From positions 1 to 34,097 of the IMG/VR virus record IMGVR_UViG_3300042938_000405: DNA of 34,097 nt; one strand, 5' to 3'. The DNA is from a virus. Lineage: Duplodnaviria; Caudoviricetes. Within the stretch, counting starts at the first letter, position 1. Each line of letters opens with the position of its first letter. The notes beneath the pieces are model-generated. The model worked only from the letters and a program-made list of their open reading frames with translations, searched no databases and was not told the DNA's origin. Shown one piece after another: positions 3,435 to 33,375 of the stretch. The translations under genes were made by a program, and so were the position numbers.

Positions 3435-4214
3435 TTAAGGTATTGTAATTGTTCCAGATTCATACAACTTTAATGCTGGAACTACAATTTTAGAAATTCC
3501 CTCTGGCTGAATTAAAATTTTTATTGTTGAAGTTGCTGTGTTTGGTATTGTATAAGTAATAACTGCTGGTTGAGATCCTTTATCAGGACTTGCAATTGCA
3601 GTACCGTGATAAGAATAATTAGTTGCTGAATTAATTTTAACAAAAATATCATACTTTAATCTTTTAGGCATATATTCTATAACTTCCATATACACCATTC
3701 CTTTTTCTGGTGTTCTGCGCTCAGAAACCATTACAGAGTCTGTCCAAGTAACTGAAAAACTTCCTGCTGGAGCAGTGGTTACACCTATCTTAGTTACTGT
3801 TGCAGCAACTGTTTCAATTGGTTCTGCGTCTACATAATAAATTGGGGACCATGCAGAGGCTCTGTTAAGATCATCAGAAACAACTCTATATCTAATACTG
3901 TGTTTATTAGAATCATTAACTGGTGGCAAATCTTTTTTTAATAATAAAGATTTTTTAATATTTTTATCTTTAGAAATCCATTTGGCATATAAAGTTATAT
4001 TTGCTGCTGCTGCTGTATAAGTACTTGCTAGTCCTGGGCCATAAAGAGTTCCATAACCGAGAGGATTAGTTGTCCATCCAAGAAAATTATAGCCAGTTTT
4101 AATAAGATTTCCAGTATTGCCAAGAATAGTTATGGTGGCTGCTACGCTATAATTGGTTGCATCTACTGGAACTGATCCTGATGTAGGAAAAGATCCATTG
4201 TAAGTCACTATCAT
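3435..4214 (-). CDS. Tail-associated protein with an N-terminal Listeria-Bacteroides (InlB B-repeat/Flg_new) domain
   Basis: VTYNG...SGSVP...KTGYNFLGWTT...ITLYAKW matches the B-repeat pattern; the rest is beta-rich and Fn3-like (VTW...YDIFVK). Confidence 0.8.
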   Translation of the reverse strand: MIVTYNGSFPTSGSVPVDATNYSVAATITILGNTGNLIKTGYNFLGWTTNPLGYGTLYGPGLASTYTAAAANITLYAKWISKDKNIKKSLLLKKDLPPVNDSNKHSIRYRVVSDDLNRASAWSPIYYVDAEPIETVAATVTKIGVTTAPAGSFSVTWTDSVMVSERRTPEKGMVYMEVIEYMPKRLKYDIFVKINSATNYSYHGTAIASPDKGSQPAVITYTIPNTATSTIKILIQPEGISKIVVPALKLYESGTITIP

Positions 4215-10600: not shown

Positions 10601-11236
10601 TTAAACCTCTTCCAGTGATACCGTAATATCCCAAAGATCATGATTGCTTTGTCCACGTTTAGATACAGTATATGAAAAATCAGAAACGTAAACTTGAACA
10701 ATTTGGTTATATTGTTCTAAATGTGTATATGGTGCTGAGGTTCCATCTTGTGCATAGTTATTAAATTTGTCATAGGCTAGAAACATCCAAAATGGTCCCG
10801 TGTGGTTTTCATACCAGTCTAGCATTTCTACTCCGCCTGCACCCCCATCAGCGGTGTATTCAGGGGACTGTGCGGTTGTTCCAGGACTGCCTCCAGTAGT
10901 AGCCCAGTTTGGTATAGAATAATAAGATCTTGATGGAAGGTTTTGCCAACTCACACTTAAAGTATTTTTATCAGCAATATGAAAAGACCTCATATTACCA
11001 TTTATCATTCTTTGTCTTTGCTCAATTCTTTGTGAGTTAAATTGAAGAGGACCACGATTGTGATCGGATAAAATTAAAAATTGATTTAAATTGGTAGTCT
11101 CTGTAGTATATGATCCTATTTCAAATCCTTCTGGCACGTACATTCCGCTTTGCAAAGTTCCTGGATTTTCTGACCAAAGAATTCCTTGTGGTCTAGAATA
11201 GCGTTTTCTTCCACTCATATATGCTGCGGTAGCCAC
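10601..11236 (-). CDS. Putative distal tail (Dit-like) protein (211 aa)
   Basis: Immediately after the TMP, TAGTG overlap, SD AGGAG; RMINGNMR...LSVSWQNLP...WDITVSLEEV pattern typical of Dit-position proteins. Confidence 0.68.
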   Translation of the reverse strand: MATAAYMSGRKRYSRPQGILWSENPGTLQSGMYVPEGFEIGSYTTETTNLNQFLILSDHNRGPLQFNSQRIEQRQRMINGNMRSFHIADKNTLSVSWQNLPSRSYYSIPNWATTGGSPGTTAQSPEYTADGGAGGVEMLDWYENHTGPFWMFLAYDKFNNYAQDGTSAPYTHLEQYNQIVQVYVSDFSYTVSKRGQSNHDLWDITVSLEEV

Positions 11237-14200
11237 TATAAACTCCTAATTCTTTGATTATCAATTTGTTTAATTTGATTGATAACTGTTCGTGCAATAT
11301 CATTTGGATTGGCATTACTGTTAGAAACATTAACGCTAAGGTTATAATTATACAGGGTTTTGGAATTATTTACTTCTGTTTGTGATCCACTAAGATTTTT
11401 AATAGAGGACATTGCTTCAGGAGTTTTAAATGTTGGGGAATTAATAGCACTAAGTAATGGACCAAACTCTTGAGTTGCTTTTCTATTTATTACAAACTCT
11501 CCAGGAGTAAGCATTGCGGGAACAGTATCAGTTCCACGAGCCAATCCACCAGATGCCATATATTTAGGAATCAATCCACCCATTGATTTAAAGATTGGAA
11601 GATGTAAATAATTGCCATAATTGATTGCTGTTACTGGGTTTTTAGTTGATGTTGTAGGTTTTTTTAATTCTGGCATTTTTTTGTCAATTCCAGCAAAATA
11701 TCTACCTAAACTTACATCGATTGCATCTTGTTTAGCCTTTTCTGCAGCAAGAAAGGCTTCTGTTGCTTTAGTCTCAGCATCTTGATTATAACCAGCATAA
11801 AGTCCTTCGTCATCATTATAGGCAGGTGGAGTAGTAACTAGTGATCCGCTTCCAGTTGGTGTGCCAACTGGTGGTGTTGGTGTAAATGGTGTTGGTGTTG
11901 GTATGTTGTCTAGAAGTGGATCTTTTCCTGCTTTTTCTCTTGCTTTATCCATTTTTGCTAAAAACGTATCTAAATCTCCATTAAGTTTTATAACAGTCTG
12001 TCGGGTTGTTTCAGCATTTCCGTCTAAAACAGTAAAAATATTTTTTAAATATGATTTTGCAGCCTCTGGACCTAATGCTTCAATTGCAAGATTAATTGTC
12101 GAAATTGCTGAATCAATTTGATCTCTTGTTAGTTTCATTTTTGTTTGAGTAATTTTATCTAATTCAATCTTCTTTTCTCTAATTTCATTTTCTATATCTA
12201 CACGTCTTTGCTCTATGTCTTGATTTAATTTTTCTAGTTCAGTTCTAGATTTTCCGTCTGGAGAAGTTACACTCTTAATAGCATTTTCTTTTGCTTTTTG
12301 TAATGCTTCCATTCTGGTTCTTGCATTTTGTGCAATTCTTGCTTCTCTATAGTCTTGCATTGCCGTTGCTGCAGCGGACATGTCTCCACTTGAAAGCGCA
12401 GCAGCAATTGACATTTTTTTAGAAGTTAACTCATTTTCTTTTTCTCTGAGTCTGTTAATTTCTTCAAGGGCAGTAATTTGTTTATCATAAGATTCATTAA
12501 TCTTTTCTTCTTGTCGTGAAATTAATTCTAAAGCATAATCGTTATTTCCTTCCTGCATGTCTAGTATAGTTTTTTCTTTAACGTATTCATTCTCAATCAT
12601 TTTTTCTTGTAATTCAATATACATTCTTGCCATTTGAAGTGTTTTACTTTGTGATTCTGCTGCATCTAATTGTGCTACATCTGTAAATCTTTTTTGTTCA
12701 AAATTAGCCTTTCTTTGTTCTTCAGAAAGTTTAACAAGATTTTTTACTTGTTCTTTAGTAAATTCTCCTTTGTTAATTGCTATAGCAATTCCTTCAGTAC
12801 TAACAAAATTTATTGCCTCTTCATATCTCATTCCAGACACTCTTAATTTATTTACAGCCTCATTAATATTTTTTTGTTTTTGCAAATTTTTTACAATGTC
12901 ATTTACTTGTTGACCCGTTTGTCCAGCAACCAAACCTTTTTCTATAACATTTACTCTTGCTTCATCAAGACCAGTAACCTTGCCTTTTTTATCAGTTTGA
13001 AGTCCATACTTTTTTAATATTTTAGGATCTTGTAATTCTTCTGGACTTAAGTTTTCAATTAAATCTTGATATTCAGCACTTACTTGTTTACCACCAACAA
13101 GTGCTGTTTCTTTTTTGCCAACTTTCTTTTTAGCAAGTTTTCTTATTTGTCCCAAAGTTCCTTCAAATTTCATCCAAGCAGATCCACCGCTTTTAGGTTT
13201 TGAGTTCATAACTCTTTCTAATTCTTTTAATCCACCAGTAGCCTTTACAGATGCTAGTTGAAAGAGTTTAAGTTTTTTAAGCATGTCATCAAATCTGTCA
13301 TCACGTTTTGCTGAACCACCAGAACCAGGAGGTTTTGGCGCACCTATACCTTCTGCTTTGGCTACTTCTGTTTTAACATTGCCCATATACTCAGCATATT
13401 TTTCAACTTGAAATCCTGGATCTTTGCCTTTATGCTCTTTTCCTTTATCTTTCAACCATGCTTGAAATTCTGGACTATTTACTACTGTTGCCACATCTAT
13501 TGTTAATACTTTTTTAATTGTTTGTAAATAAATTTTTGCTTGCTCATCTGTTAAACCTTGTAAATATTTTTGGTCGACTGCATTTTCTGATATTTTAACT
13601 TCTGATAAAAATTCTATTTTCTTTACTTTTTTTGTGTCTTTAATTTTTTGTAAATCGTTTGCAAGTTTTAACTTATCTTCATCTGGCATTTTTAAGAAAA
13701 ATTCCATTTCAGTATCTAACTTCATAGGTCCATTAAGTTGAGTAAATTCTTGAACCAAGTTTGCAAAATCTTGTGCTTCTTTGTCAGTTCCTTTTGTTTT
13801 TAATTCAAACATAAACTCCTGTTTGTTTCTTTCATTCAAAGCCGTATTTGGACCCTCATTCATGGCATTAGTAACGCCTATTGCCTGAGTTGCTACTTGT
13901 CCCCCAAAGTTTTTTACAACATCAATAGCGTCGGCCTGATATTGACCTGACATTTGATTGGTAATAGCACTTTGAGCCTGCGGAGAAAGAGTTCCACCCA
14001 TACTTTCTGCTATTAATACTCCTCTTTCCTCATCAGTCAAAATCTTTTCTGTGACCTGTTTTCCAGTTTTTTTATCTGTTTTTGTAAATGTTTTATCTTT
14101 TAAATCATCCATGCCTGTTATTGCTGCGTCAACATATGCTTCATCAGCCGTACCTTTATATTTGGATTTAAGTGCTTTCTTGTATCCTTTATCTAAAGAT

Positions 14201-17200
14201 CCTCTAAAAGTGCCTGTTGAACCTGCATAGGCTTTAGAAAAATCTTCTCTTTGAGATTTTGTCTGTGCTGTCAGATCCGCTCTTTCTTTTTCATATTTTA
14301 ATTGTAATTTTGTTGCCTCACCGATTTTATTTTGAAGTATAAGTTCTTGTCTTTTTGATTCATATTGCTCTTGATGAGCATCTAATAATTGTTTAGATTG
14401 TTCAAACATTCCTTGTGCATCAGCAATTGCTGCACCAGAAAGAGCACCCATTTTTTTAACATTTTTCTTATTGGCAAAGAATGCTCCTACGCCACCGACA
14501 ATTCCACCAACTGCTGTTCCAACTAATGCTCCAATAGCAGTACCAAGCACTGGTACAGGTATAAAACTACCTATTCCTGCACCTATTGCAGCACCCGCAC
14601 CCGCACCTGCTGCCACCATTCCACCAACATTAGTCTTAGTACCAAATGCAGACAAGCCTTTTTCAGATTGTTGGTTTAATTTATCAAAATTTGAATTTTT
14701 ACTAGTAAAGTTTTTTGATGAATCTGCCATTAACCTAACCTGAAGATCAACACCTTCTTTTAAAAGATCTTTTCCATCTTTACCAAATATGCCTTGAATT
14801 TCTGCTGCAACAGTCATTCCAATTGTGTGATCTTTCATTTGCACCCCAATGTTTGCTGCAATGGATTGTGCTTCGCTTGACGAAAGCGCTCCTGATAAAA
14901 CAGAAGTAATTAATTGTGCTGAAAGATCTTTAGTTGCTTTTTCTCTTCCCCCCTTTTTATCATTTATTATTGTTTGTCCTATGGCAGCAATTGATTCTTG
15001 ACCTTCTTTGGTTTGAACATATGCTTGCCCAAATGTTGTTTTTCCTGGTTTTATTGGTAGGCCAGAGGCTTGCTCGATTCTTTTTCTGTTTTGAATTTCT
15101 GATCCAGTTACTCTGTTTGAAAATTGTGCATATTGATTAATTGCTTTTGTGCTAGTCCCAGTAGTCTCTCCTAATTTTAATGCTGCTGCTTGTGCGTTAT
15201 CAAATATTACATTTAATGCAATAACTGCAGCACCAAATGCTGCAAGAGGGGCAACAACTGCTCCTAATGGTGATCCAATCATAGGCGCTACCATTGATGC
15301 TAAACCAACAATTGGCATGATGGTTTGTGCAATTTCACCAGTTTTTCCTGGAGCCATACTTAGTGCACCCATAGCCATGCTGGCACCCATCATTGCGCCA
15401 CCAGCACGTTGCCCAATCTGTCTTCCTTTTTCTCGTCTCTGCATTTTTGCATCTTTTTTTGCGTCTTTGTTTGTTTGGGGTAGCAGTTGCGGACTATTCA
15501 TTTCTCTGTTCAGTCTTGCCGTTTCACGTGCGCTATTCATTGCCTGACCTGCATTTTTTCTTTCTTGAACAGCATTTTCTCTTGCTCGTTTTAAAGACGC
15601 TAGTCTGTCAGTATCTCCTGCTTTTTTTGCTTCAGCAATTTGATAATCTATTTTTTTAATTTTATTTTTGTGTTTAATTAATTCTTTTTCTGCTTTTTGA
15701 ATTGTATCCTTATCTTTTATTTCGTCAACTGCTCTTTGGTTTGCTCTTTTTATTTCGTCTTCTTCTTGTTTTTGTCTATCTTCTTCTTGTTGTTGTTTGG
15801 CTCTATGCTTTTCTCCAATTGGTGTTTTCTCAACAATAGCATCTATTTTGTTTATTACTTTAGTGGTTCTTACTCGTCTTGCTATTTCTCTATTACGTTG
15901 CTCAGTATGCTTACGTTGTTCTGGAGTCATATCAGGAGTAATTGTTTCTAATTGATCTGGATCATATACCCCAACATTGTCGAACGGATTGCCTTCACCA
16001 CGTAAAACAAATCCACCTTTATTTAATCTTTGTAAAAATCCTTTATTTTCCTCTGTTGATCCTTTATTTACAACAAAAGATCCTTTACTTAAAATCATTG
16101 GAACTGTATCTTTATTTCCCGTTCCTGGAACTATTGTTCCATTAGAACGTTGTTCAATTTTTCCACCGGCATTTATATATTGCAATGCTGGACCAACTTT
16201 TTGTGCTAATGCTGGAGATGCAATAAACTCTCCTGGAGTTAATAATGCTGGTACGGTTTCTGGTTCACCATAACCTGGTGTTCCTAATGATCTTCTTCTT
16301 GTTGTATATGGAAAAGCAAAAGCAATTCCAGATCTTGTTGCTAAAGCCTCTCTTGCTTTAGTAAGTACAAGACTTCCTGTTGGACCAAATGTACGACCAG
16401 ACAGAGCCAGCAAAGATCTAATTTTTTGATAATGTTCTTCTTGATTACCTCTTCCATTTCTTATTGCTGTAAGTCGTGATGCAATTTCTTCTTCTAATAT
16501 ACCACCAAGTCTAGAACCTGGATTTGATTTTGGACTACCCATTGCAAGTTTACTGCCAAAACTTTTCTCACGGGCGGATGCACTTTTATCACGAAGAAGA
16601 GCGGGTACTTTTCTACCAGAAGCATCAGTAGTTTCTTGCCAATCACTTAATGCAACTGTTTGTAAATGACTTCTTAAAGCATTACCCCTTAGTCCTAAAC
16701 CTCTTGGCGGTGGAGCAATTGCGTGTTCAAAGTCTCTAACCTTTTTTGCATAAATAGAATTTGCTTGACCTCTTCTGGTTGGGTCTTCTCCTTCTAGAGC
16801 AGCAGTTGTTAAACCATATCTATTGGAAATAGCGCTATTCCATGCTTTTTCTGGAGTTGGCTTTTTACCAATTGTTCTTGCATCTGCAACTAACTCTGCT
16901 AAAGCAATTCTGGCTAATTTTTGTCTTGATGTTATTTTCAGTATTTCTTCCTTCTTTGCTCCTTCTAAAATTGCCCTATCATAAAGTATTTTGTCATAAC
17001 GTATTCTTGCCTGTAATGCATGTTTTGTTTTTACAGCATCTTTGTATGTTAGAGGATATGGTTCTGAGATATTACCAAGGGGTATCTTAGGATTTGACCC
17101 ATTCAATGCATTAGTTAATTGGTTATATCCTTCTGGGCCAATAATTGTAACACCAGACGATATTCTATTATTAAATTTAGCACTGGTTGGGTCATCGTTA

Positions 17201-20200
17201 TAAAAATTATGATATAGTCTTGGATCAAGTTGTTGATGTGCATCTTCAAAATGCATCATTACTGTTTTTGAAACCCCCGAACTTGCAGATACAGTAGGTG
17301 TTATAAAATGTTTTGGATCTACAAAATCATAATCTGTGCCAAACGCTCTTTCAACAAACCCGCCTTTATTTAATGCAGCAGCATGAATTGCTTGAAATTT
17401 TGACCAATCAACTTTTGATCCAGCCTCTAGTCTGGCAATCATTGCCTCATATACTGGAATCTCTTCTGGAGTTAAATTCATGCCTCCTATTTTGGTTTTT
17501 AATTTTGGTAAAATTTCATTAATTTCTTTTCTCATTAACCTGTCATATTCAACTGGAGACATTTGTTTTGCAATACCTGATGTTGATTGAGCAAAAAACT
17601 TTCTAGCACCACCACTAACACCGAGCAGGTTGACCATTGCTTGTTCTTCCATTGATGGCATTTTTGCTGCATATTCAGTTTTTGGACCTGATGCCCTGCT
17701 AAATACACCAGCAGGACCTGTATCTGCTAAAACATTTCCACCAATATTTCCTGGTGCCAAGTCTTTATCGCCACGTAGAGTTGAAGCAACCAATTGTTTA
17801 ATTGTTTGTTCTTTAGTAAATTCTTGTGGTACGTTTGCAATTCTTGGATCAACTTTAGATTCTAAAGCAAAATACCTTCTATGTCCAGTTGGGTCATTTG
17901 GATCTGCAATCAAAGTTAGTTTTTGTTGTGGAGAAACAAGACCATGAACATCTCTAGCAATTTCTGTTGCTCTCATTTCTGCTAATGCTGCTTTTTCACT
18001 TACCATTGGTTTAACAAAAACCATATCTCCATTTGGTTTTCTGTAAACGCCTCCAACAGAAGAACTTGGGAAACTACGTCCAGTAGAAGGAGAAACTCTT
18101 TCACCAGGATTTGTAACTAGCATAGTTTTTGCTCTAGGAGACTTATAGGTTTCGGTTGCTATTTTATCAAGTTCTACTTGTTTTGTTTGTCTTTCTTGAG
18201 CCTTTTTTACATTTTGAGCAGGCATTCCAAGAAATGATTGTTGGGCTTTTCGTTTTGCAACAAATGCTTTAGCGTATTCAATTGATCCTGGACGCATTTT
18301 TGGCAATGATCTATCATAACCATTAAGCATTTTAGTTCCTAAACTACGTAAAGCAAAACCACCTTTATTTAACGCTGGTAATAATCCCCGATTTTCTTGT
18401 GCTGCTTCTTTATTTACAACAAACTCTCCAGGAGTTAACATTGCTGGAACAGTATCCGTGTTTCCAGTTCCTGGAACAACTCCTCCTTCATTAAATTTTC
18501 TTGGTGTAAATCCTGGTCTCATCATTCCTGGACTTGTTCTAGCAAAATTATTTGCTGCTACCACTCCTCTTTGATACGCTATTGTTAATTGATTTGCAGC
18601 CTGCGCTTCTAATAGAAAGGTTTGTCGTAATCTAGAATGTGCTTGATCTAAAGATGCTGCGACTGTTGTTGCTTCAATTTGCTCTGATGTCATATACTGA
18701 GTTTGATTGCCAAGCATTTTAGACTGCCCACCAAGATTTGCAAATCCTTTTCGCAGGGTAACAAATAATTTAATAATATTTGCTACTCCGTTTGCAACTA
18801 AACCAAATGTCATTAACAATGCAGGACCAACAAGACCAACAAGGCCAATAAATTTTACAATTCCACTTTTTACTCCATCACTAAGTCCATTAAATTTTTC
18901 AATTATTTTGCCAATAAACTCTACTATTGGGGTAACTGCTTTTAAAAATTGTTCTCCAATTGGTGCTAATGTTAATTTAAGATCTTCCATTGATTTCTTA
19001 AATTTTGTACCAGTTGCATCTTCTACTTTTTTAAGTTCTCGTTCAGATAAGATAGCAAGTTCTTGTACTGAGGCCCCTGATAATTTTAATGTTCTAGATG
19101 CTTGGGTTCCATCTTTAGTTATGTTTTGAAATAAAGTTGATAATCTTGAAAATTGAAATTTTCCAAATAATTGTTCAATTGCTCTTGCTCTATTTAAAGG
19201 GTCAAGAGTATCTAGTGCTTGTGCAAATTCAACAACGGTTGATTGAATGTCTCCTTTGTTTGATTCAACAATTCCATTGATATTAACGCCTAAATCTAAA
19301 AGAAATGCTGCTGCTTTTTTAGAAGGGTTAATCAATGATGCAAGTCCAGACTTAAGTGCGTTAGCGCCTTCTGAAGCGTTAATACCACCTTCTTTCATGG
19401 CGGTCATAAAGAATGCAAGATCTTCTACATCTCCACCAAGTTGTCTAATAACTGGGGCAGCCTTTGGAATTGCAATAGTTAAATCTTCAATATTTAAAAC
19501 TGTTTGGTTTTCTACAGCGTTAAGAAAATCAATTTTGCTTCTTAATTTGTCTGCTTCAATTCCAAAAGCATTTGTTAAAGATATTGTTGTTTCTAATGCC
19601 TGTTCTTGTTCAACTCCTCCAAGAACTGCAAGTCTTGTTGCTTCTGCAACCTGTGCTATTAAATCGGCACCCATTTTTCCTGTTGCTGCAGCATCTGCTG
19701 CAATTTGCATAGTTTTTTCAACAGCAACTCCATACTTAGTAAACTGTTTTGCTAATAATTCAACTTCTCTTAATGCTTTATTAGTTTCATCAGTAGTTGT
19801 AAACATTTCTCCATATACACGTTTAAATCTAATGGCTTGTTTTTCTAATGCCATAAATGTTTTTCCTGCAGAAACTGCCAACATGCTAAGTGGAACTGTG
19901 AAACCAACCATGAGTTGGCGACCTGCCCACTGAGTATTTTTACCAAAATTTAAAAGATTGGTCGATCCTTGTTTTAATAATTGATTTAGCAATTGTTGTT
20001 TTTGTGCTGCAAGAGCAGTTTTAGTAGCAAGATTATTCATGTCTAAAGCAAGTGGTTTTACGGCTATAGCCTTAATTGCACCATTTGCATCTCTACCCAT
20101 TTTAATATATTGGGTTTGCATTGTTTTAACACGTTCTTCTGCTACCTTGCCAATTGTGTTAAACTCTGTTTTAAAAAGTCTTCCAAAAGATTTGGTTGCA

Positions 20201-20490
20201 CCACCAGCATACCTAAAATATTCACGAGTTGAAAATTTATTTCGCTCTAAAGAATCAGTAAAGGCATCGCTAGAACTTTTAATATCTTTAATACTTGCTT
20301 GAAATTTTCCAGTTGCATTTACACTATTTATAAGATTGCTTGTTAAGTTGGCTTGAGCCCTTGCTGCCGCTTTGTTGCTTGTTGCAATTGCGTTATTAAA
20401 CTGAGCAAGTTGTGCTTGAAGTGATTTTAGTTGTGCAAGCGCTTGAGAGGCATCAAGGTTAACTTGAATATTCGATTGTACATCAGCCAC
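11236..20490 (-). CDS. Tail tape measure protein (3084 aa) with inserted cargo domains
   Basis: Longest ORF, directly after the tail tube and chaperones; TP901-type core (DFLNAVENQT...DVEDLAFFMTAMKEGGINASEGANALKSGLASL...RARAIEQLFGK), coiled coils, hydrophobic and Gly-zipper segments; SD GAGGTG before GTG. Confidence 0.95.
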   Translation of the reverse strand: MADVQSNIQVNLDASQALAQLKSLQAQLAQFNNAIATSNKAAARAQANLTSNLINSVNATGKFQASIKDIKSSSDAFTDSLERNKFSTREYFRYAGGATKSFGRLFKTEFNTIGKVAEERVKTMQTQYIKMGRDANGAIKAIAVKPLALDMNNLATKTALAAQKQQLLNQLLKQGSTNLLNFGKNTQWAGRQLMVGFTVPLSMLAVSAGKTFMALEKQAIRFKRVYGEMFTTTDETNKALREVELLAKQFTKYGVAVEKTMQIAADAAATGKMGADLIAQVAEATRLAVLGGVEQEQALETTISLTNAFGIEADKLRSKIDFLNAVENQTVLNIEDLTIAIPKAAPVIRQLGGDVEDLAFFMTAMKEGGINASEGANALKSGLASLINPSKKAAAFLLDLGVNINGIVESNKGDIQSTVVEFAQALDTLDPLNRARAIEQLFGKFQFSRLSTLFQNITKDGTQASRTLKLSGASVQELAILSERELKKVEDATGTKFKKSMEDLKLTLAPIGEQFLKAVTPIVEFIGKIIEKFNGLSDGVKSGIVKFIGLVGLVGPALLMTFGLVANGVANIIKLFVTLRKGFANLGGQSKMLGNQTQYMTSEQIEATTVAASLDQAHSRLRQTFLLEAQAANQLTIAYQRGVVAANNFARTSPGMMRPGFTPRKFNEGGVVPGTGNTDTVPAMLTPGEFVVNKEAAQENRGLLPALNKGGFALRSLGTKMLNGYDRSLPKMRPGSIEYAKAFVAKRKAQQSFLGMPAQNVKKAQERQTKQVELDKIATETYKSPRAKTMLVTNPGERVSPSTGRSFPSSSVGGVYRKPNGDMVFVKPMVSEKAALAEMRATEIARDVHGLVSPQQKLTLIADPNDPTGHRRYFALESKVDPRIANVPQEFTKEQTIKQLVASTLRGDKDLAPGNIGGNVLADTGPAGVFSRASGPKTEYAAKMPSMEEQAMVNLLGVSGGARKFFAQSTSGIAKQMSPVEYDRLMRKEINEILPKLKTKIGGMNLTPEEIPVYEAMIARLEAGSKVDWSKFQAIHAAALNKGGFVERAFGTDYDFVDPKHFITPTVSASSGVSKTVMMHFEDAHQQLDPRLYHNFYNDDPTSAKFNNRISSGVTIIGPEGYNQLTNALNGSNPKIPLGNISEPYPLTYKDAVKTKHALQARIRYDKILYDRAILEGAKKEEILKITSRQKLARIALAELVADARTIGKKPTPEKAWNSAISNRYGLTTAALEGEDPTRRGQANSIYAKKVRDFEHAIAPPPRGLGLRGNALRSHLQTVALSDWQETTDASGRKVPALLRDKSASAREKSFGSKLAMGSPKSNPGSRLGGILEEEIASRLTAIRNGRGNQEEHYQKIRSLLALSGRTFGPTGSLVLTKAREALATRSGIAFAFPYTTRRRSLGTPGYGEPETVPALLTPGEFIASPALAQKVGPALQYINAGGKIEQRSNGTIVPGTGNKDTVPMILSKGSFVVNKGSTEENKGFLQRLNKGGFVLRGEGNPFDNVGVYDPDQLETITPDMTPEQRKHTEQRNREIARRVRTTKVINKIDAIVEKTPIGEKHRAKQQQEEDRQKQEEDEIKRANQRAVDEIKDKDTIQKAEKELIKHKNKIKKIDYQIAEAKKAGDTDRLASLKRARENAVQERKNAGQAMNSARETARLNREMNSPQLLPQTNKDAKKDAKMQRREKGRQIGQRAGGAMMGASMAMGALSMAPGKTGEIAQTIMPIVGLASMVAPMIGSPLGAVVAPLAAFGAAVIALNVIFDNAQAAALKLGETTGTSTKAINQYAQFSNRVTGSEIQNRKRIEQASGLPIKPGKTTFGQAYVQTKEGQESIAAIGQTIINDKKGGREKATKDLSAQLITSVLSGALSSSEAQSIAANIGVQMKDHTIGMTVAAEIQGIFGKDGKDLLKEGVDLQVRLMADSSKNFTSKNSNFDKLNQQSEKGLSAFGTKTNVGGMVAAGAGAGAAIGAGIGSFIPVPVLGTAIGALVGTAVGGIVGGVGAFFANKKNVKKMGALSGAAIADAQGMFEQSKQLLDAHQEQYESKRQELILQNKIGEATKLQLKYEKERADLTAQTKSQREDFSKAYAGSTGTFRGSLDKGYKKALKSKYKGTADEAYVDAAITGMDDLKDKTFTKTDKKTGKQVTEKILTDEERGVLIAESMGGTLSPQAQSAITNQMSGQYQADAIDVVKNFGGQVATQAIGVTNAMNEGPNTALNERNKQEFMFELKTKGTDKEAQDFANLVQEFTQLNGPMKLDTEMEFFLKMPDEDKLKLANDLQKIKDTKKVKKIEFLSEVKISENAVDQKYLQGLTDEQAKIYLQTIKKVLTIDVATVVNSPEFQAWLKDKGKEHKGKDPGFQVEKYAEYMGNVKTEVAKAEGIGAPKPPGSGGSAKRDDRFDDMLKKLKLFQLASVKATGGLKELERVMNSKPKSGGSAWMKFEGTLGQIRKLAKKKVGKKETALVGGKQVSAEYQDLIENLSPEELQDPKILKKYGLQTDKKGKVTGLDEARVNVIEKGLVAGQTGQQVNDIVKNLQKQKNINEAVNKLRVSGMRYEEAINFVSTEGIAIAINKGEFTKEQVKNLVKLSEEQRKANFEQKRFTDVAQLDAAESQSKTLQMARMYIELQEKMIENEYVKEKTILDMQEGNNDYALELISRQEEKINESYDKQITALEEINRLREKENELTSKKMSIAAALSSGDMSAAATAMQDYREARIAQNARTRMEALQKAKENAIKSVTSPDGKSRTELEKLNQDIEQRRVDIENEIREKKIELDKITQTKMKLTRDQIDSAISTINLAIEALGPEAAKSYLKNIFTVLDGNAETTRQTVIKLNGDLDTFLAKMDKAREKAGKDPLLDNIPTPTPFTPTPPVGTPTGSGSLVTTPPAYNDDEGLYAGYNQDAETKATEAFLAAEKAKQDAIDVSLGRYFAGIDKKMPELKKPTTSTKNPVTAINYGNYLHLPIFKSMGGLIPKYMASGGLARGTDTVPAMLTPGEFVINRKATQEFGPLLSAINSPTFKTPEAMSSIKNLSGSQTEVNNSKTLYNYNLSVNVSNSNANPNDIARTVINQIKQIDNQRIRSL
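11440..11565 (-). repeat. TMP repeat copy, C-terminal (KYMASGGLARGTDTVPAMLTPGEFVINRKATQEFGPLLSAIN)
   Basis: Protein repeat; 11492-11529 matches 18419-18456 at 35 of 38 nt. Confidence 0.9.
15991..16299 (-). repeat. Two tandem TMP repeat copies (ETVPALLTPGEF...INAGG; VPGTGNKDTVPMILSKGSFVVN...LNKGG)
   Basis: Visible in the translation; shares CCTTTATTTAA (16016-16026) with other copies. Confidence 0.88.
17335..17376 (-). repeat. Partial TMP repeat (junction ALNKGGFVERAFGT)
   Basis: Matches ALNKGGFALRSLGT and RLNKGGFVLRGEG; CCTTTATTTAA at 17363-17373. Confidence 0.8.
17385..18110 (-). other. PI3K/PI4K/HipA-like kinase domain embedded in the TMP
   Basis: Ordered motifs: SVGGVY (Gly loop), VFVK827, E838 (helix C), GDKD910LAPGN915 (catalytic loop), LAD923TG (DFG equivalent), C-lobe ending MIARL. 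Confidence 0.72.
18334..18498 (-). repeat. TMP repeat copy 1 (KFNEGGVVPGTGNTDTVPAMLTPGEFVVN...LNKGGFALRSLGT)
   Basis: Visible in the translation; CCTTTATTTAA at 18362-18372. Confidence 0.9.
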
Positions 20491-20509: not shown

Positions 20510-20827
20510 TTACATATTTAGTAAAGAACCATCTGGAAGACTATTTCCAGACGCTGCCTCAACAATTTTATAAACTGTAGGCAAATCTAAGTTTTCCTCA
20601 AGGGCCTTTAGGTCTTCTGACAATTCAGGTTTATACTGTTGCATTGCAATTTGAACACATTCCATAAGAATGTTCATTGATTTCTCGTTATCTTCTGCTA
20701 CTGCTGCAATACCCTCAAACTTTTTCATAAAAGGACGAAGTAGTGAAATCTTTAACGGTCTAACGGAAACCTTTGTTCCGTCAATAAGAACAACTACATT
20801 CTCGTCTGTTTTTGTTGCTGCTGCCAT
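20510..20827 (-). CDS. Tail assembly chaperone, short (gpG-like, 105 aa)
   Basis: Between tail tube and TMP; SD AAGGAG; aligns with the N-terminal part of 20873-21580. Confidence 0.78.
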   Translation of the reverse strand: MAAATKTDENVVVLIDGTKVSVRPLKISLLRPFMKKFEGIAAVAEDNEKSMNILMECVQIAMQQYKPELSEDLKALEENLDLPTVYKIVEAASGNSLPDGSLLNM

Positions 20828-20872: not shown

Positions 20873-21580
20873 TTATTTTTTAGTTAAATCTTCATAATCT
20901 AAGCCCATTCCAATACCAAACCCTGCTCTTGCTGCATTAGGACCTTGCAATGATAATACGTCATTACCGTCACTTGTTTGTCCACCACTAAAGACTCTTG
21001 CTTTCATGTCTTCCCATTCTTTTTGTCCCCTGCCACTTTCACTGTTTTTATCTAAATCTACTCCTTGAATTGCTGCCAAAAACTTTTTTTCTTCATAATC
21101 TAAATCTCTTTTTGAAGACAAGGTTTGCATTAATTCTGGAATAGAAAGAGATGCCTCTAACTCTTCATAGTTTTTCCATATCCCTAAAGTAAAAACTTCT
21201 GCTTCTAATTTTGCTAAATCTAAATCAAGCCAGCCTTGATCTTTCTCTTTGCCTTTTGATATTTCTTTAATTGGCGCCTCTTCTTCTTTTGTTGTTTGTG
21301 GCTTTATCTTAATTCCGGCTGCAATTTCAACAATATCATAAAGGGTATTAAGATCAACATGTTCTTCTAAATCTAAAAATAAACCAGGATTGTATTGTTT
21401 CATGCAGACCCTAGAACATTCTAATAAAATTTCAATAGATTCATCATCATTTTTTGAACTTTCCATGCCAATAAATATATCCATAAACTCTCTCATGTAT
21501 TTAATCTTTAAAGGAGAGCACTCAAGAACTTGATTGTTTAGTAATACAATTTGAGATGTTTTAAAAACTTTTGTAGCCAT
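20873..21580 (-). CDS. Tail assembly chaperone, long (gpGT-like fusion, 235 aa)
   Basis: Directly after the tail tube gene; G-like N-terminal domain, charged linker, then helical WKNYEELEASLSIPEL domain in the gpT position. Confidence 0.75.
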   Translation of the reverse strand: MATKVFKTSQIVLLNNQVLECSPLKIKYMREFMDIFIGMESSKNDDESIEILLECSRVCMKQYNPGLFLDLEEHVDLNTLYDIVEIAAGIKIKPQTTKEEEAPIKEISKGKEKDQGWLDLDLAKLEAEVFTLGIWKNYEELEASLSIPELMQTLSSKRDLDYEEKKFLAAIQGVDLDKNSESGRGQKEWEDMKARVFSGGQTSDGNDVLSLQGPNAARAGFGIGMGLDYEDLTKK

Positions 21581-29802: not shown

Positions 29803-32800
29803 TTATGCTACAGTTGATATAGAACTTTGCCAAGTGGCGTCTTTAAATACCTTCAAATAGTCAGTCTCCATATAAATACCTTCATTGTCATCTACAATAA
29901 TTTTATTTGTGCCAACGTAATTCTTATAAACCTCTGCAGGATTAACAATATACCTGCTGTCCCTACTCTTAACTAAAACGTTATCCCAATTTGAATCGTC
30001 CCAATAGTTCCAATTTTGATCGTTTATTTCTCCCCACGTTCTAAACAAAATCTGTTGTTCAAGTTGTGAATTGGTTCCTTTATAAAAAGATATGTTATTA
30101 AAAGTCATTAGATGTTTTAAATTTATTTTTCCATTGTAAGAATTTAAATTAAGGTTAACTGGAAAAGACATACCTAAAACTGCCCATCTTTGAATTGACA
30201 TAGTTGGCTCTGCCACATAAAGTCCATCTAAATAATAATACAATTCTGTAAATGGTAGGCCATCAGATTTTGTTTTAGCAGAAATAGTTGCTCTGTCTGC
30301 ATTCAACGAGTTGGCTTGAATATAAAATTCTATTGTATCGTTTGCATACTCTATTTCAAATATTAAAACTGGATCTTCAGGAAATGCCCATAAATCTGAC
30401 CTAATAAACATTTGAATAGCACTTAAAGAATACTTAAGGTCTAAGCCTGGATTAATGTCAATACTGAATCCACGACTTAAATTGTTTAGTCCGTCTCTTA
30501 ATTCAATCCCGCTTTTTCTTGTAAGATATAAATATGGAACACTCTCTTTGTCAATAACATATGGATTTACTCCTTTGTAATCAGCAACACCACTTGCCAA
30601 TTTGTATGGAATTAAATCTATTCCATATCTACTTGTTACTGGATTTGAATCATTTGCATTTAAACTTTTTGCTGCAAACTCTATTTTTCTTAAAGAAAGT
30701 TTATTATGTAATATACCAAACACTTTAAACCTAATGGAGTAAACCATTGATATAGTGTTAAAATCAATATTTTTTGATGGATAAATTAAATAATTATCAA
30801 CAATTTCAAACCTTTCAGTTTGCCAATCCGCTTCAGTATTTAAATTTAATATTCTTTTTTTAATTGCTGGGTTTGTTGTTGCATAGTCTGAGTCTGTCTG
30901 CGTAATGCCTTGAGAAATATCTTGAAAAGTAACATATACTCTTACGTTTGAATCGTTAGTATTTAATGAATCGGAATTGTCTACCCAATAGGTGTCTCCC
31001 TCTTCTTTTACTTCAGATGGTGCTGGATAGTCAATATTAAACTGAATAAAATCAATATCTGTTATAGTTTCTTCGTCTTCATCTAAAACATCTTTTGCAA
31101 GTACTGATAGTGGAATATAATCTTCCCAATAACCAAAAACTGAAATATCAATAAAAAACTTTCCATAATCTTCAAAAGAAAATAAGGTATAACTAGAAAC
31201 ATGATTAATGGTAGAGTTTGCAAAATTAAAAGTTCCATCATCGTAGAAGTATGAGTCTAGCGTAAAAGATGTATGCTTATATGTATTAATTCCAACATTA
31301 TATATATTTCCAGTAAACATATTTTCTTTATTTGGTTGGCTTCCAATATATAGTTTTAATGATCCTGGATTTGCAAAAAATTGAGCAAGCCCACCTGTTG
31401 TATTGTTTGCAATTAATTTTGAAATTTGAATTCCGGCAGTAAAAGTTGTAACGGGACAAGTATGCGATCTAATCGTAGTTGAAACTCCAGCATAAGTAAA
31501 AACATAATTTAGTAGAGTAGATTCTTTTTTAATGGCAAAACTGTTTACTCCGTCTGTTATGTACAAGAACATAGCATTTTGATTTTCTTCTAATTTAAAT
31601 GTTCCAACAATAGAATCTATAGTGTTTGAAATAAACGAAAGATTTTCAAAATATATATAAGAATTTGTGTCCCAGGTTCCGGATGGTTTCAAACTAAAAA
31701 ATTTTGACCCTGTGGTTTGAATCAATTTATTAGCAGCCTCTAGTTCAGTTATAGTTTTATTTTCAGGTAGAACAAAGTTAGGCAATTGATAGTCTGGGGT
31801 TTTAAGTGTTGATATTCCAGGAATCAAATTATCCTCAATTCCAGAATCCCAAGACCTTGTAGTTGGATATGTAACGTTATTGCTATATCCTGCAAATGGA
31901 TAGTCTATTTCTACTGTTGATCCACCATAATAATTATCTATAATTTCTGGTGTTGTTGGTATACCCTGACCTAAAATATAATGAACTTTTGCTGCATTTG
32001 TTGAAATAGAATATGGATATAAAGAAATACAATCAATCTTAATTTGATCCACATATGTTTCATATGCATAGAAAGCAATCCAGTCATTACTTTCGGTTGT
32101 GTGTATTTCATCATATTGTGAAGGAAGATTCATTAACAATGTATCAAATATTAATGATCCAACCTCTTCACCATTAACTAAAAGAATTGCCTTATTTTTA
32201 ATAAGTTTAATATGAATAAGCATTGGTCTATACCATTCGCCAACAAAATGTGAAATAAAATTTCCATCAATTGCCAAAGTTAAAAAACAATCTTTTACAT
32301 ATAGACCATCTGTTGATCCTATTGGTCCCAAAATTCTTTTTGCATCTGATGTATTTACATCTGCCTGCAACCAAACCTCTAAAGTATAATCATTGTGTCT
32401 ACCAGATTCATTTAAAAATCCATAGCCTGGAAAAATAAAAGATGGTTGAGTATTTGTAATTAAATCTGCTTCATCTACAAAATAATTTATATCTGTCCAA
32501 GAGTCTTCTGTATTTTTCCAATAAGACCAACTTTCTTCAGCAACCTGTTCCCAAGTTCTATAATCAATTATTTCTGAGTGTGGGATTAACTGAACTGCTC
32601 TGTCTGATCCATAAACAAGCGGTACACCAAAATTTTTACCAGCCAAAGAATTGTTGTCAACAACATAATATCCGCTATTTGCATTAAGACCATAAGCATT
32701 TGCTTCAACTACTCCATCTAAAGATAAATTAATAGTTGCTGGACTTGAAAGTTTTGTTTGACCTAATGATGTTGCATTAAACTCTTCACTGTGTTGACCT

Positions 32801-33375
32801 GCAGTAATCCCATTAAAATGAATATTATAATCTGCAATAGTTGCTCCTCCTGGAGAGGAAACAACTTTTATAACAAATTTAAATTCTTTGTCAAGGTCTG
32901 GAAAAGTAAATGTTGCTGAAATTGGAGTCCAAACTTCTGATTCAATAATTGTAAAATCTTTAAACTGTGATCCTCCATCATACTCATAACCAATAGATAT
33001 TGAAACAATGTTTGCACTTGCTGTATAGTAGTATGTGCTTAAAGCAAAAGTTTGTAGTGTAGGATTTAAAGATTGAAAATTTACCAAGTTTGGACTTTTT
33101 ATATAGTATGTTGTATTTGTACTAGAAGGAAGCGTTGATCTAAAAACTTTGCGATAACTATCTGGAAATGGTTGAACTTGGTTTTCTCCATTAAAAACTG
33201 GAGTTGATCCAGCAATAACTGTCCCACCTGTTAATGTCCAGTTGGTGGCATTACTAATATCCCTTTGTGCTTCTGATATTAAAGAGATATAGTCTGCTGA
33301 ATCATCTAATGGCCAAATTGCAAGCGGATGCTCGGCAAAAATTTTTTCGGCATATAAATTAGAAGGAGTATTCAT
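29803..33375 (-). CDS. Large putative virion protein (1190 aa) with LamG/ConA-like and CBM-like beta sandwiches
   Basis: HPLAIWPLDD start, YTLEVWL...IHIKL...LLVNGEEV...IDCISLY (LamG-like), WTPISATFT (CBM4/9-like); aromatic, Asn/Ser/Thr-rich. Confidence 0.65.
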   Translation of the reverse strand: MNTPSNLYAEKIFAEHPLAIWPLDDSADYISLISEAQRDISNATNWTLTGGTVIAGSTPVFNGENQVQPFPDSYRKVFRSTLPSSTNTTYYIKSPNLVNFQSLNPTLQTFALSTYYYTASANIVSISIGYEYDGGSQFKDFTIIESEVWTPISATFTFPDLDKEFKFVIKVVSSPGGATIADYNIHFNGITAGQHSEEFNATSLGQTKLSSPATINLSLDGVVEANAYGLNANSGYYVVDNNSLAGKNFGVPLVYGSDRAVQLIPHSEIIDYRTWEQVAEESWSYWKNTEDSWTDINYFVDEADLITNTQPSFIFPGYGFLNESGRHNDYTLEVWLQADVNTSDAKRILGPIGSTDGLYVKDCFLTLAIDGNFISHFVGEWYRPMLIHIKLIKNKAILLVNGEEVGSLIFDTLLMNLPSQYDEIHTTESNDWIAFYAYETYVDQIKIDCISLYPYSISTNAAKVHYILGQGIPTTPEIIDNYYGGSTVEIDYPFAGYSNNVTYPTTRSWDSGIEDNLIPGISTLKTPDYQLPNFVLPENKTITELEAANKLIQTTGSKFFSLKPSGTWDTNSYIYFENLSFISNTIDSIVGTFKLEENQNAMFLYITDGVNSFAIKKESTLLNYVFTYAGVSTTIRSHTCPVTTFTAGIQISKLIANNTTGGLAQFFANPGSLKLYIGSQPNKENMFTGNIYNVGINTYKHTSFTLDSYFYDDGTFNFANSTINHVSSYTLFSFEDYGKFFIDISVFGYWEDYIPLSVLAKDVLDEDEETITDIDFIQFNIDYPAPSEVKEEGDTYWVDNSDSLNTNDSNVRVYVTFQDISQGITQTDSDYATTNPAIKKRILNLNTEADWQTERFEIVDNYLIYPSKNIDFNTISMVYSIRFKVFGILHNKLSLRKIEFAAKSLNANDSNPVTSRYGIDLIPYKLASGVADYKGVNPYVIDKESVPYLYLTRKSGIELRDGLNNLSRGFSIDINPGLDLKYSLSAIQMFIRSDLWAFPEDPVLIFEIEYANDTIEFYIQANSLNADRATISAKTKSDGLPFTELYYYLDGLYVAEPTMSIQRWAVLGMSFPVNLNLNSYNGKINLKHLMTFNNISFYKGTNSQLEQQILFRTWGEINDQNWNYWDDSNWDNVLVKSRDSRYIVNPAEVYKNYVGTNKIIVDDNEGIYMETDYLKVFKDATWQSSISTVA

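Follow-up and report, generated by a model that had tools for sequence, protein, structure and literature searches.

Introduction

The prevailing view of tape measure proteins (TMPs) is that they are expelled into the cell envelope and form a channel for DNA there; gp96 of Thermus phage P23-45 holds an active RNA polymerase within a full-size TMP in virions (PMC10770324). Here we describe a module with a predicted kinase fold inside the 3084-residue TMP encoded by the virus record IMGVR_UViG_3300042938_000405 (Duplodnaviria; Caudoviricetes), the full 34,097 nucleotides of which we call the window. Like the gp96 enzyme, which is proposed to act at the entry pore, the module lies inside a giant siphophage TMP. 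Unlike gp96, which is an RNA polymerase conserved in relatives and shown to be active, it is a predicted kinase, optional, and bounded by repeats.

The T7 kinase gp0.7, which is expressed after entry, can disarm host defences broadly; its features include a DPV motif and a shut-off domain that binds DNA (PMC13645617). As a phage kinase with early action against defences, gp0.7 offers a working analogy for function; the module differs in lying in a late structural gene and in its metal-binding motif, which reads D-[VTP]-G (37 members). Polyvalent phage proteins are mosaics of enzyme domains that include a kinase proposed to act on host proteins in the manner of the T7 kinase; this kinase has lost its C-terminal subdomain, conserves a His before the catalytic Asp, and comes from phages of Verrucomicrobia-Chlamydia and Bacteroidetes (PMC5512222). 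The TMP resembles these proteins as a large virion-linked protein with mosaic enzyme domains. Unlike the polyvalent kinase, the module keeps its C-terminal subdomain, a helical C-lobe in the predicted model, and has no conserved His in the catalytic loop. Tme proteins are reportedly TMP-related effectors of actinobacterial contractile injection systems. So is Sle1 (PMC13277306), and the word 'kinase' is absent from the main text of that paper. Like the present protein, both are found in Actinobacteria and combine a scaffold of TMP type with functional domains that can be exchanged; they differ in belonging to bacterial machines and in carrying C-terminal domains.

Full-text searches that covered few subscription papers and no supplements, with most matches judged by their listing, gave no publication on a kinase within a TMP (the supplementary alignments of PMC5512222 could bear on this). 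None of PMC5512222, PMC9503650, PMC5576092 and PMC13645617 uses the word 'tape' in its main text, nor does the accessible part of PMC3482391; PMC7824862 mentions a TMP once, not with a kinase.

A predicted kinase-fold module within the tape measure protein

The TMP module with its predicted kinase fold is real, conserved and widespread. The protein that carries it has PHROG 10030 (tape measure protein) as its best PHROG match (E 1e-93), contains a PF10145 core, is long and helical, and is encoded after the tail tube and chaperone genes and before the minor tail genes. The relevant features are:

11236..20490, minus strand: tape measure protein gene, 3084 residues (Pfam, PHROG and synteny with Stanwilliamsviridae)
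19162..19752, minus strand: PhageMin_Tail (PF10145) TMP core, residues 247–443 (E 2e-23)
17371..18180, minus strand: predicted atypical kinase-fold domain, residues 771–1040 (model and structural matches)
18043..18075, minus strand: Gly-rich loop region S806–Y816, with S806 as a candidate regulatory serine
17977..18012, minus strand: beta-3 Lys827 and helix-C Glu838 (conservation; model strand 53–58 and helix 62–77)
17746..17772, minus strand: catalytic loop G907–N915 with D910 and N915 (conservation)
17689..17724, minus strand: metal-binding D923-x-G925 and activation segment to S934 (conservation)

An identical kinase domain is present in 4 of 11 viral loci, two of which have the same whole 3084-residue open reading frame (ORF), and one contig covers positions 16003–19300 with 0 differences (the window may itself derive from the sequencing run that yielded this contig). 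An assembly artefact is thereby excluded.

The AlphaFold2 model of the module (55 sequences) has a predicted local distance difference test (pLDDT) score of 89.9 and a predicted template modelling (pTM) score of 0.89. It has the bilobal form of the kinase-like superfamily, with a beta-sheet N-lobe and a helical C-lobe. E838 lies on a long helix, the stretch just past D923 is modelled with low confidence, and five helices come after D923. The structural matches given below imply that the five catalytic-site residues (K827, E838, D910, N915 and D923) would cluster in one active site. All matches listed by a Foldseek search of the PDB were kinases, the best being CtkA (E 2e-3). With a wider aligner (VIA), all 50 matches listed were kinase folds, led by CotH (Z 12.4, root-mean-square deviation 3.9, 217 residues aligned) and including PI4KIIalpha (Z 10.7), MavQ (10.6), CtkA (10.3), Fam20C (9.1), Vps34 (9.1) and HipA (8.4–8.8); the atypical kinase branch scored above ordinary protein kinases. 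The module shares with CotH (5jda), CtkA (3akj), PI4KIIalpha (4hnd), MavQ (7m7a) and HipA/HipT (4pu3/5k98/7ab3) both the predicted fold (Z 8.4–12.4) and the order of elements: Gly loop, Lys, Glu, D-x4-N, D-x-G. It differs from them in having only 9–15% identity and no sequence or profile match, in having no His after the catalytic Asp, and in being a domain of about 270 residues within a virion protein, with no adjoining antitoxin gene (the neighbours of the module's gene are tail chaperone-like and tail genes).

Among the viral models of BFVD there were seven matches at E<=1e-3 (TM-scores 0.33–0.56, 15–18% identity), all to large phage proteins described as portal, ADP-ribosyltransferase or PI3/4-kinase-domain proteins or left unnamed. 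The closest predicted structures are a portal fusion (A0A6J5S481), an ADP-ribosyltransferase (A0A6B9L6W7, Mycobacterium phage Onyinye) and A0A4D6E245 (Gordonia phage GodonK); these uncharacterised proteins differ from ours in not being TMPs by description. The nearest named Atlas clusters, LepB_N, HipA_2 and PI3_PI4_kinase (0.92–0.93), serve as a lead only. The nearest Atlas entries by features (0.96) are unnamed proteins of 286–321 residues, mostly bacterial with Spirochaetota the commonest, and are possible free-standing relatives.

Assignment by sequence gave a different outcome. Searches of solved structures with a single sequence or a profile returned nothing significant (best E 0.12, 1.0 and 0.46). 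The module has no Pfam or PHROG match, no Pfam kinase family matched 37 members at E<=0.1, and none was found in 56 TMP cargo zones. A profile comparison with Escherichia coli HipA gave an hhalign probability of 0.2%, with no Pfam HipA match in the 37 members, and the module lacks the HipA catalytic motif D-x-H-x-K-N. PI3/PI4 kinases carry a DRH motif. The module has no Pfam match to that family (PF00454), and its loop reads D-L-x instead. Type II PI4Ks also lack the His of DRH, so a lipid substrate is still compatible with its absence. There was likewise no Pfam match to the CotH kinase family, the structural Z of 12.4 coming at just 9% identity. On the features tested, the module's sequence places it outside the HipA, PI3/4K, CotH and polyvalent kinase families; judged by its model, it almost certainly has an atypical kinase fold.

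A first-pass annotation had proposed a kinase fold resembling PI3K, PI4K and HipA at 17377–18333 (residues 720–1038). The domain does lie in that range, the folded part being narrower (about residues 771–1040), and the fold is borne out by the confident model and by structural matches that, as listed, are all kinases. The proposed resemblance holds by structure and does not extend to membership of the HipA or PI3/4K families by sequence.

Conservation of the catalytic residues

The family is not rare. A search with residues 775–1040 gave 2562 candidates, 601 of them of TMP length; K827, E838, D908, D910, N915 and D923 are invariant among the 120 matches listed, one of which is the window's own. 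A profile search of 1.84 billion representatives gave 172 clusters at 50% identity, 150 of them listed. All five catalytic-site residues are kept in 133 of the 134 listed clusters that cover the five positions, at identities reaching below 30%, and in 37/37 members in another comparison. Taken singly among the listed clusters, K827 is present in 135/135, E838 in 139/139, D910 in 145/146, and N915 and D923 each in 146/146, with G814 in 135/135. In the sole exception of the 134 (P0211), Val replaces D910; this may be a dead copy. Position 912, which corresponds to HipA His311, is occupied by S, Q, G, A or K, and by His in 4/146.

S806 (133/135 listed clusters) lies beside the Gly-rich loop, and S/T934 is kept in 146/146. 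In HipA and HipT, a serine adjoining that loop is autophosphorylated (PMC8262856), which makes S806 a candidate switch. A loose kinase-motif pattern occurs once in the TMP and in 0/2000 shuffles, a weak control because the pattern was fitted after the fact. The ratio of nonsynonymous to synonymous substitution rates (dN/dS) in the kinase is 0.22–0.31 (five comparisons, two of them identical). Short contigs with few differences touch the kinase in 2/2 metatranscriptomes, which is no demonstration of transcription. The predicted kinase module is probably catalytically active.

The motifs that the first-pass annotation singled out (SVGGVY 811–816, VFVK 824–827, GDKDLAPGN 907–915 and LADTG 921–925) and the identities and numbers of its five residues are correct in the TMP translation, and its register agrees with the retrieved HipA sequence (D309-x-H311-x-K-N314 and D332). 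The conservation it called for is found in all three sets of relatives (120/120, 133/134 and 37/37). It was right that the position of the HipA His is not His here; the Ala it reported there is not conserved. Neither a non-kinase fold nor unconserved residues, either of which it held to speak against its proposal, was found. Its overall interpretation, by which the kinase would also be ATP-dependent and injected with the genome, is partly supported. What it did not anticipate is the cassette nature of the domain, which is optional, bounded by repeats, open to exchange, and common among these phages.

The module is an optional cassette

The cassette and the repeats around it are laid out as follows:

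17353..18373, minus strand: kinase cassette including bounding repeats (repeat family D5, junctions in relatives)
18352–18373 and 17353–17374, minus strand: 22-nt repeats bounding the kinase cassette, both encoding LNKGGF
18361..18477, minus strand: fence peptide copy 1, residues 672–710, DTVPAMLTPGEFV motif (repeat families D1 and D3)
16297..17334, minus strand: second cassette, residues 1053–1398 (junctions, shared pattern)
16015..16281, minus strand: fence peptide copies 2 and 3, residues 1404–1442 and 1454–1492 (repeat comparison)
11437..11538, minus strand: fourth fence peptide copy, close to the C-terminus, residues 2985–3018 (repeat comparison)

The fence peptide has 39 residues, with four copies in the TMP starting at 672, 1404, 1454 and 2985, and shorter LNKGGF ends also occur. 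The two 22-nt DNA repeats lie 999 nt apart, in frame, and bracket the kinase. In all but one of the 8 closest relatives, identity drops from 80–96% to 24–26% right after the downstream repeat, and one relative (P0113) is 91% identical in the N-terminus and 28–66% identical across the kinase. The presence of the kinase was scored in 80 loci picked by the TMP N-terminus alone, 13 of which were dropped since they do not reach the downstream scaffold marker (the 13 included two with the kinase and two complete TMPs without it). Thirty-four of the 67 related TMPs have the kinase, as do 29/56 when near-copies are removed. Presence requires nine changes on the scaffold tree, at least eight of them forced by well-supported branches; it is still clustered on the tree (nine changes versus a shuffle mean of 22.6). 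Scaffold and kinase identities are weakly correlated (rho 0.29; 30 of 36 carriers), and in one pair (L120/L118) the scaffolds are 96% and the kinases 50% identical. The median TMP length is 2967 residues with the module versus 2574 without. The kinase is missing from both Streptomyces phage TMPs tested (about 2090 residues).

Among the 150 listed clusters, 114 have the TMP N-terminus and a fence, 24 a fence only, and 12 neither; the last, of 144–1267 residues, look like fragments. No separate small-protein family appeared among proteins of 148–473 residues (12 matches, 44–98% identical). Cassette and scaffold do not differ in codon use or GC content and thus give no sign of a foreign donor. 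We infer that recombination at the repeats is what swaps the cassettes.

The second cassette has a conserved H...GYNQ.T...PYPLT pattern, seen in 19 proteins. Its model has a pLDDT of 51.9, its structural matches are generic helical hairpins, and it has no Atlas match. A reading by eye as a His-Me nuclease is unsupported. A third variable segment (about 15420–15990, minus strand; TMP residues 1500–1690) is highly charged, follows the double fence, and occurs in few close relatives.

Position of the module and other cargo

Three hydrophobic blocks were recognized in the TMP by hydropathy:

18754..18873, minus strand: first hydrophobic block, residues 540–579, predicted membrane segment
15193..15333, minus strand: second hydrophobic block, residues 1720–1766
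14470..14628, minus strand: third hydrophobic block, Gly-rich, residues 1955–2007

In 101/102 full-length TMPs, residue 400 and the kinase are separated by exactly one hydrophobic block, and a later block is present in 90/102. The kinase sits outside its usual slot in two proteins, at residue 2860 in P0256 (4468 residues) and at 2206 in P0220. Other cargo matched by Pfam in 27 carriers comprises HAD phosphatases, M23, CHAP, LysM, CW_7, NlpC/P60 and OmpA. The wall-acting domains (CHAP, LysM, CW_7, NlpC/P60 and M23) follow a second block in the four proteins in which both were seen, and HAD phosphatases precede it in two. This order fits a cytoplasmic zone for the kinase.

The HAD acid-phosphatase PF03767 and the kinase occur in the same TMP in P0030, in P0157 and in 8 of the 120 listed matches. 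In one of the 56 cargo zones (L110:11000-13597), a cytidylyltransferase-like domain (PF01467, above the cut-off) lies directly ahead of the kinase. The cargo zones of L089, L099 and L146 have modules of about 300 residues ahead of the kinase or in its place; these have His...Asn patterns, look like His-Me nucleases by eye, and have no Pfam match.

Function of the module

We tentatively favor, by analogy and with a probability of about 0.4, a virion-delivered kinase that would act at entry on host proteins before phage gene expression. Because the predicted kinase-fold module within the TMP keeps five catalytic-site residues, the virion would likely deliver a ready-made kinase; we infer its presence in the virion and its release into the host from its fusion to the TMP, with which, and with the DNA, it would be ejected. 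A folded domain of 270 residues would hardly fit the tail lumen, so the module is probably carried unfolded and would refold after ejection. The first hydrophobic block would cross the host membrane once, leaving the module to face the cytoplasm and its ATP. Near the entry site the module would, on the model of the T7 kinase and HipA, phosphorylate host defence or gene-expression proteins within the first minutes of infection and ahead of phage gene expression. Optional presence and allele exchange fit a role in conflict.

Several observations weigh against this reading. The best Foldseek match in the PDB has an E-value of just 2e-3, none reaching 0.001, with TM-scores of 0.24–0.41. The His that follows the catalytic Asp of HipA is present in only 4/146 relatives. 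Kinase dN/dS exceeds that of the scaffold (0.10–0.15; two alignable comparisons), and depletion of Ser/Thr/Tyr near the kinase is unclear (0.155 versus 0.167, p 0.06, in carrier cargo zones of related sequences). No tblastn match at E<=1 was found in 50,697 cultured-phage records. As to placement, 11/102 TMPs have no later hydrophobic block, the kinase of P0256 follows the second block and lies beyond an M23 peptidase, and two OmpA carriers have no second block. The topology is drawn from hydropathy alone, and the block at residues 540–579, about 40 residues long, could be a hairpin, which would leave the module outside. Few TMP copies enter per infection, which would limit a broad effect. Finally, PI4KIIalpha, MavQ and Vps34, which have lipid substrates and are three of the top eight VIA matches, tie with protein kinases; with both kinds of kinase within about 2 Z units, structure does not separate a protein from a phosphatidylinositol substrate.

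That tie is the basis of one alternative, in which the module is delivered and acts as a lipid or small-molecule kinase, tethered at the entry site by the TMP membrane segments. There it would phosphorylate phosphatidylinositol or a related precursor of membrane or wall and so ease DNA passage. Actinobacteria have phosphatidylinositol, LepB_N and PI3_PI4_kinase are among the Atlas neighbors, the predicted blocks would always put the module in a membrane-anchored protein, and the same TMP zone of relatives holds HAD phosphatases. We nonetheless consider it unlikely: the protein kinases CotH, CtkA, HipT, Fam20C and HipA score as high or higher, we know of no phosphoinositide signaling in bacteria, and rapid allele exchange would better suit an arms race between proteins than a fixed lipid target. 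The top structural match, CotH, is a spore-coat kinase, which lends some plausibility to a late role in the producing cell, where the module would phosphorylate the TMP, chaperones, virion proteins or pre-lysis host proteins and be silent or cut away in the virion. The TMP is produced late, in surroundings rich in ATP, the conserved S806 and S934 could be self-targets, and the fence repeats could be protease sites. Yet half of the related TMPs and both Streptomyces phage TMPs are without the module, so tail assembly does not need it; a late role could do without being part of the TMP, and neither the proteins of 148–473 residues nor the listed clusters included a free-standing copy. We rate this role, too, as unlikely.

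Improbable, too, is a kinase fold with little or no catalytic activity, serving to bind nucleotide or as a structural spacer that alters tail length. The unconserved His position, the length of carriers (about 390 residues longer at the median) and the missing Pfam kinase matches would agree with such a spacer, which would not, however, keep five residues intact in all but one of the 134 clusters. Least probable is a 'Trojan horse' toxin against flagellate grazers that eat infected cells, with eukaryotic phosphoinositides or proteins as its target. Such a role was proposed for ADP-ribosyltransferases of freshwater actinophages (PMC6802176), and the structural neighbors MavQ, LepB and CtkA are effectors of bacteria that infect eukaryotes; but a common fold does not show a common target, no route of translocation into the eukaryotic cytosol is evident, and placement in a TMP points to the bacterial envelope. 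Virion delivery of a protein kinase could also be part of something broader, a possible though rather doubtful picture in which the TMP of a large group of freshwater actinophages is a programmable cargo bay. Its fenced cassettes would be swapped by recombination, and their place would depend on the side of the membrane they serve: kinases and phosphatases would follow the first membrane segment, and wall hydrolases the second. The commonest cassette would be an injected kinase of a new, His-less atypical family that rewires the host ahead of all phage gene expression.

The phage and its likely host

The window is a 34-kb virus record with a single block of genes on the minus strand. This block comprises genes for ribonucleotide reductase, portal, protease, capsid and major tail protein, two chaperone-like genes, the 3084-residue TMP, minor tail genes and a DnaB helicase. 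Among cultured phages, the nearest relatives are members of the Stanwilliamsviridae that infect Streptomyces (about 33% identity in the TMP N-terminus and 45% in the portal), with which the tail genes are syntenic. Window DNA was found in lake and freshwater metagenomes, and all sampled words occur in 16 DNA runs, each of which may be the source of the window. The gene whiB serves as an actinophage marker (PMC6802176). It scored above the cut-off in 5/5 related records at least 90% complete, and in 0/5 of the closest related records, these being only 35–45% complete. Its presence in the near-complete relatives makes a freshwater actinobacterium the likely host.

A scan of 185,579 species genomes gave two loci with the module, both in metagenome-assembled bins. 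One (L081; G011:C1) is an 85-kb contig with a TMP kinase filed in an 'uncultured Bifidobacterium' bin. The sole whiB match of that bin is on its first contig, which has the same accession number as the kinase-bearing contig, so that the contig is probably a mis-binned phage. Neither locus was used as host evidence.

Two chaperone-like genes ahead of the TMP (20873–21580 and 20510–20827, minus strand) both match phrog_10504, and the first (235 residues) has a further, in-frame match to phrog_10474. This looks like an arrangement in which the long chaperone form needs no frameshift and the short form has a gene of its own. In phage Yaboi a joined (frameshifted) gene is annotated at the chaperone position. 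Between ribonucleotide reductase and the portal block lies an ORF of 1190 residues (29803–33375, minus strand) with no PHROG match and with weak Pfam matches, below the cut-off, to lectin and carbohydrate-binding module families. A tail-region ORF of 259 residues (3435–4214, minus strand) matches the Listeria-Bacteroides repeat PF09479 (E 2e-6).

Implications

By analogy, the module may work like gp96 and the polyvalent virion-delivered enzymes while looking like a kinase of the CotH/CtkA/HipA/PI4KII type. Known phage kinases, for example T7 gp0.7, are made after entry; a TMP kinase would arrive with the DNA and, if the assignment is true, could be at work ahead of restriction or abortive defences. 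The finding also bears on how the tail lumen carries folded enzymes. Being small and predicted to fold well by itself, the domain lends itself to tests of activity and substrate without culture of the phage. The phages that carry it probably infect dominant lake bacteria.

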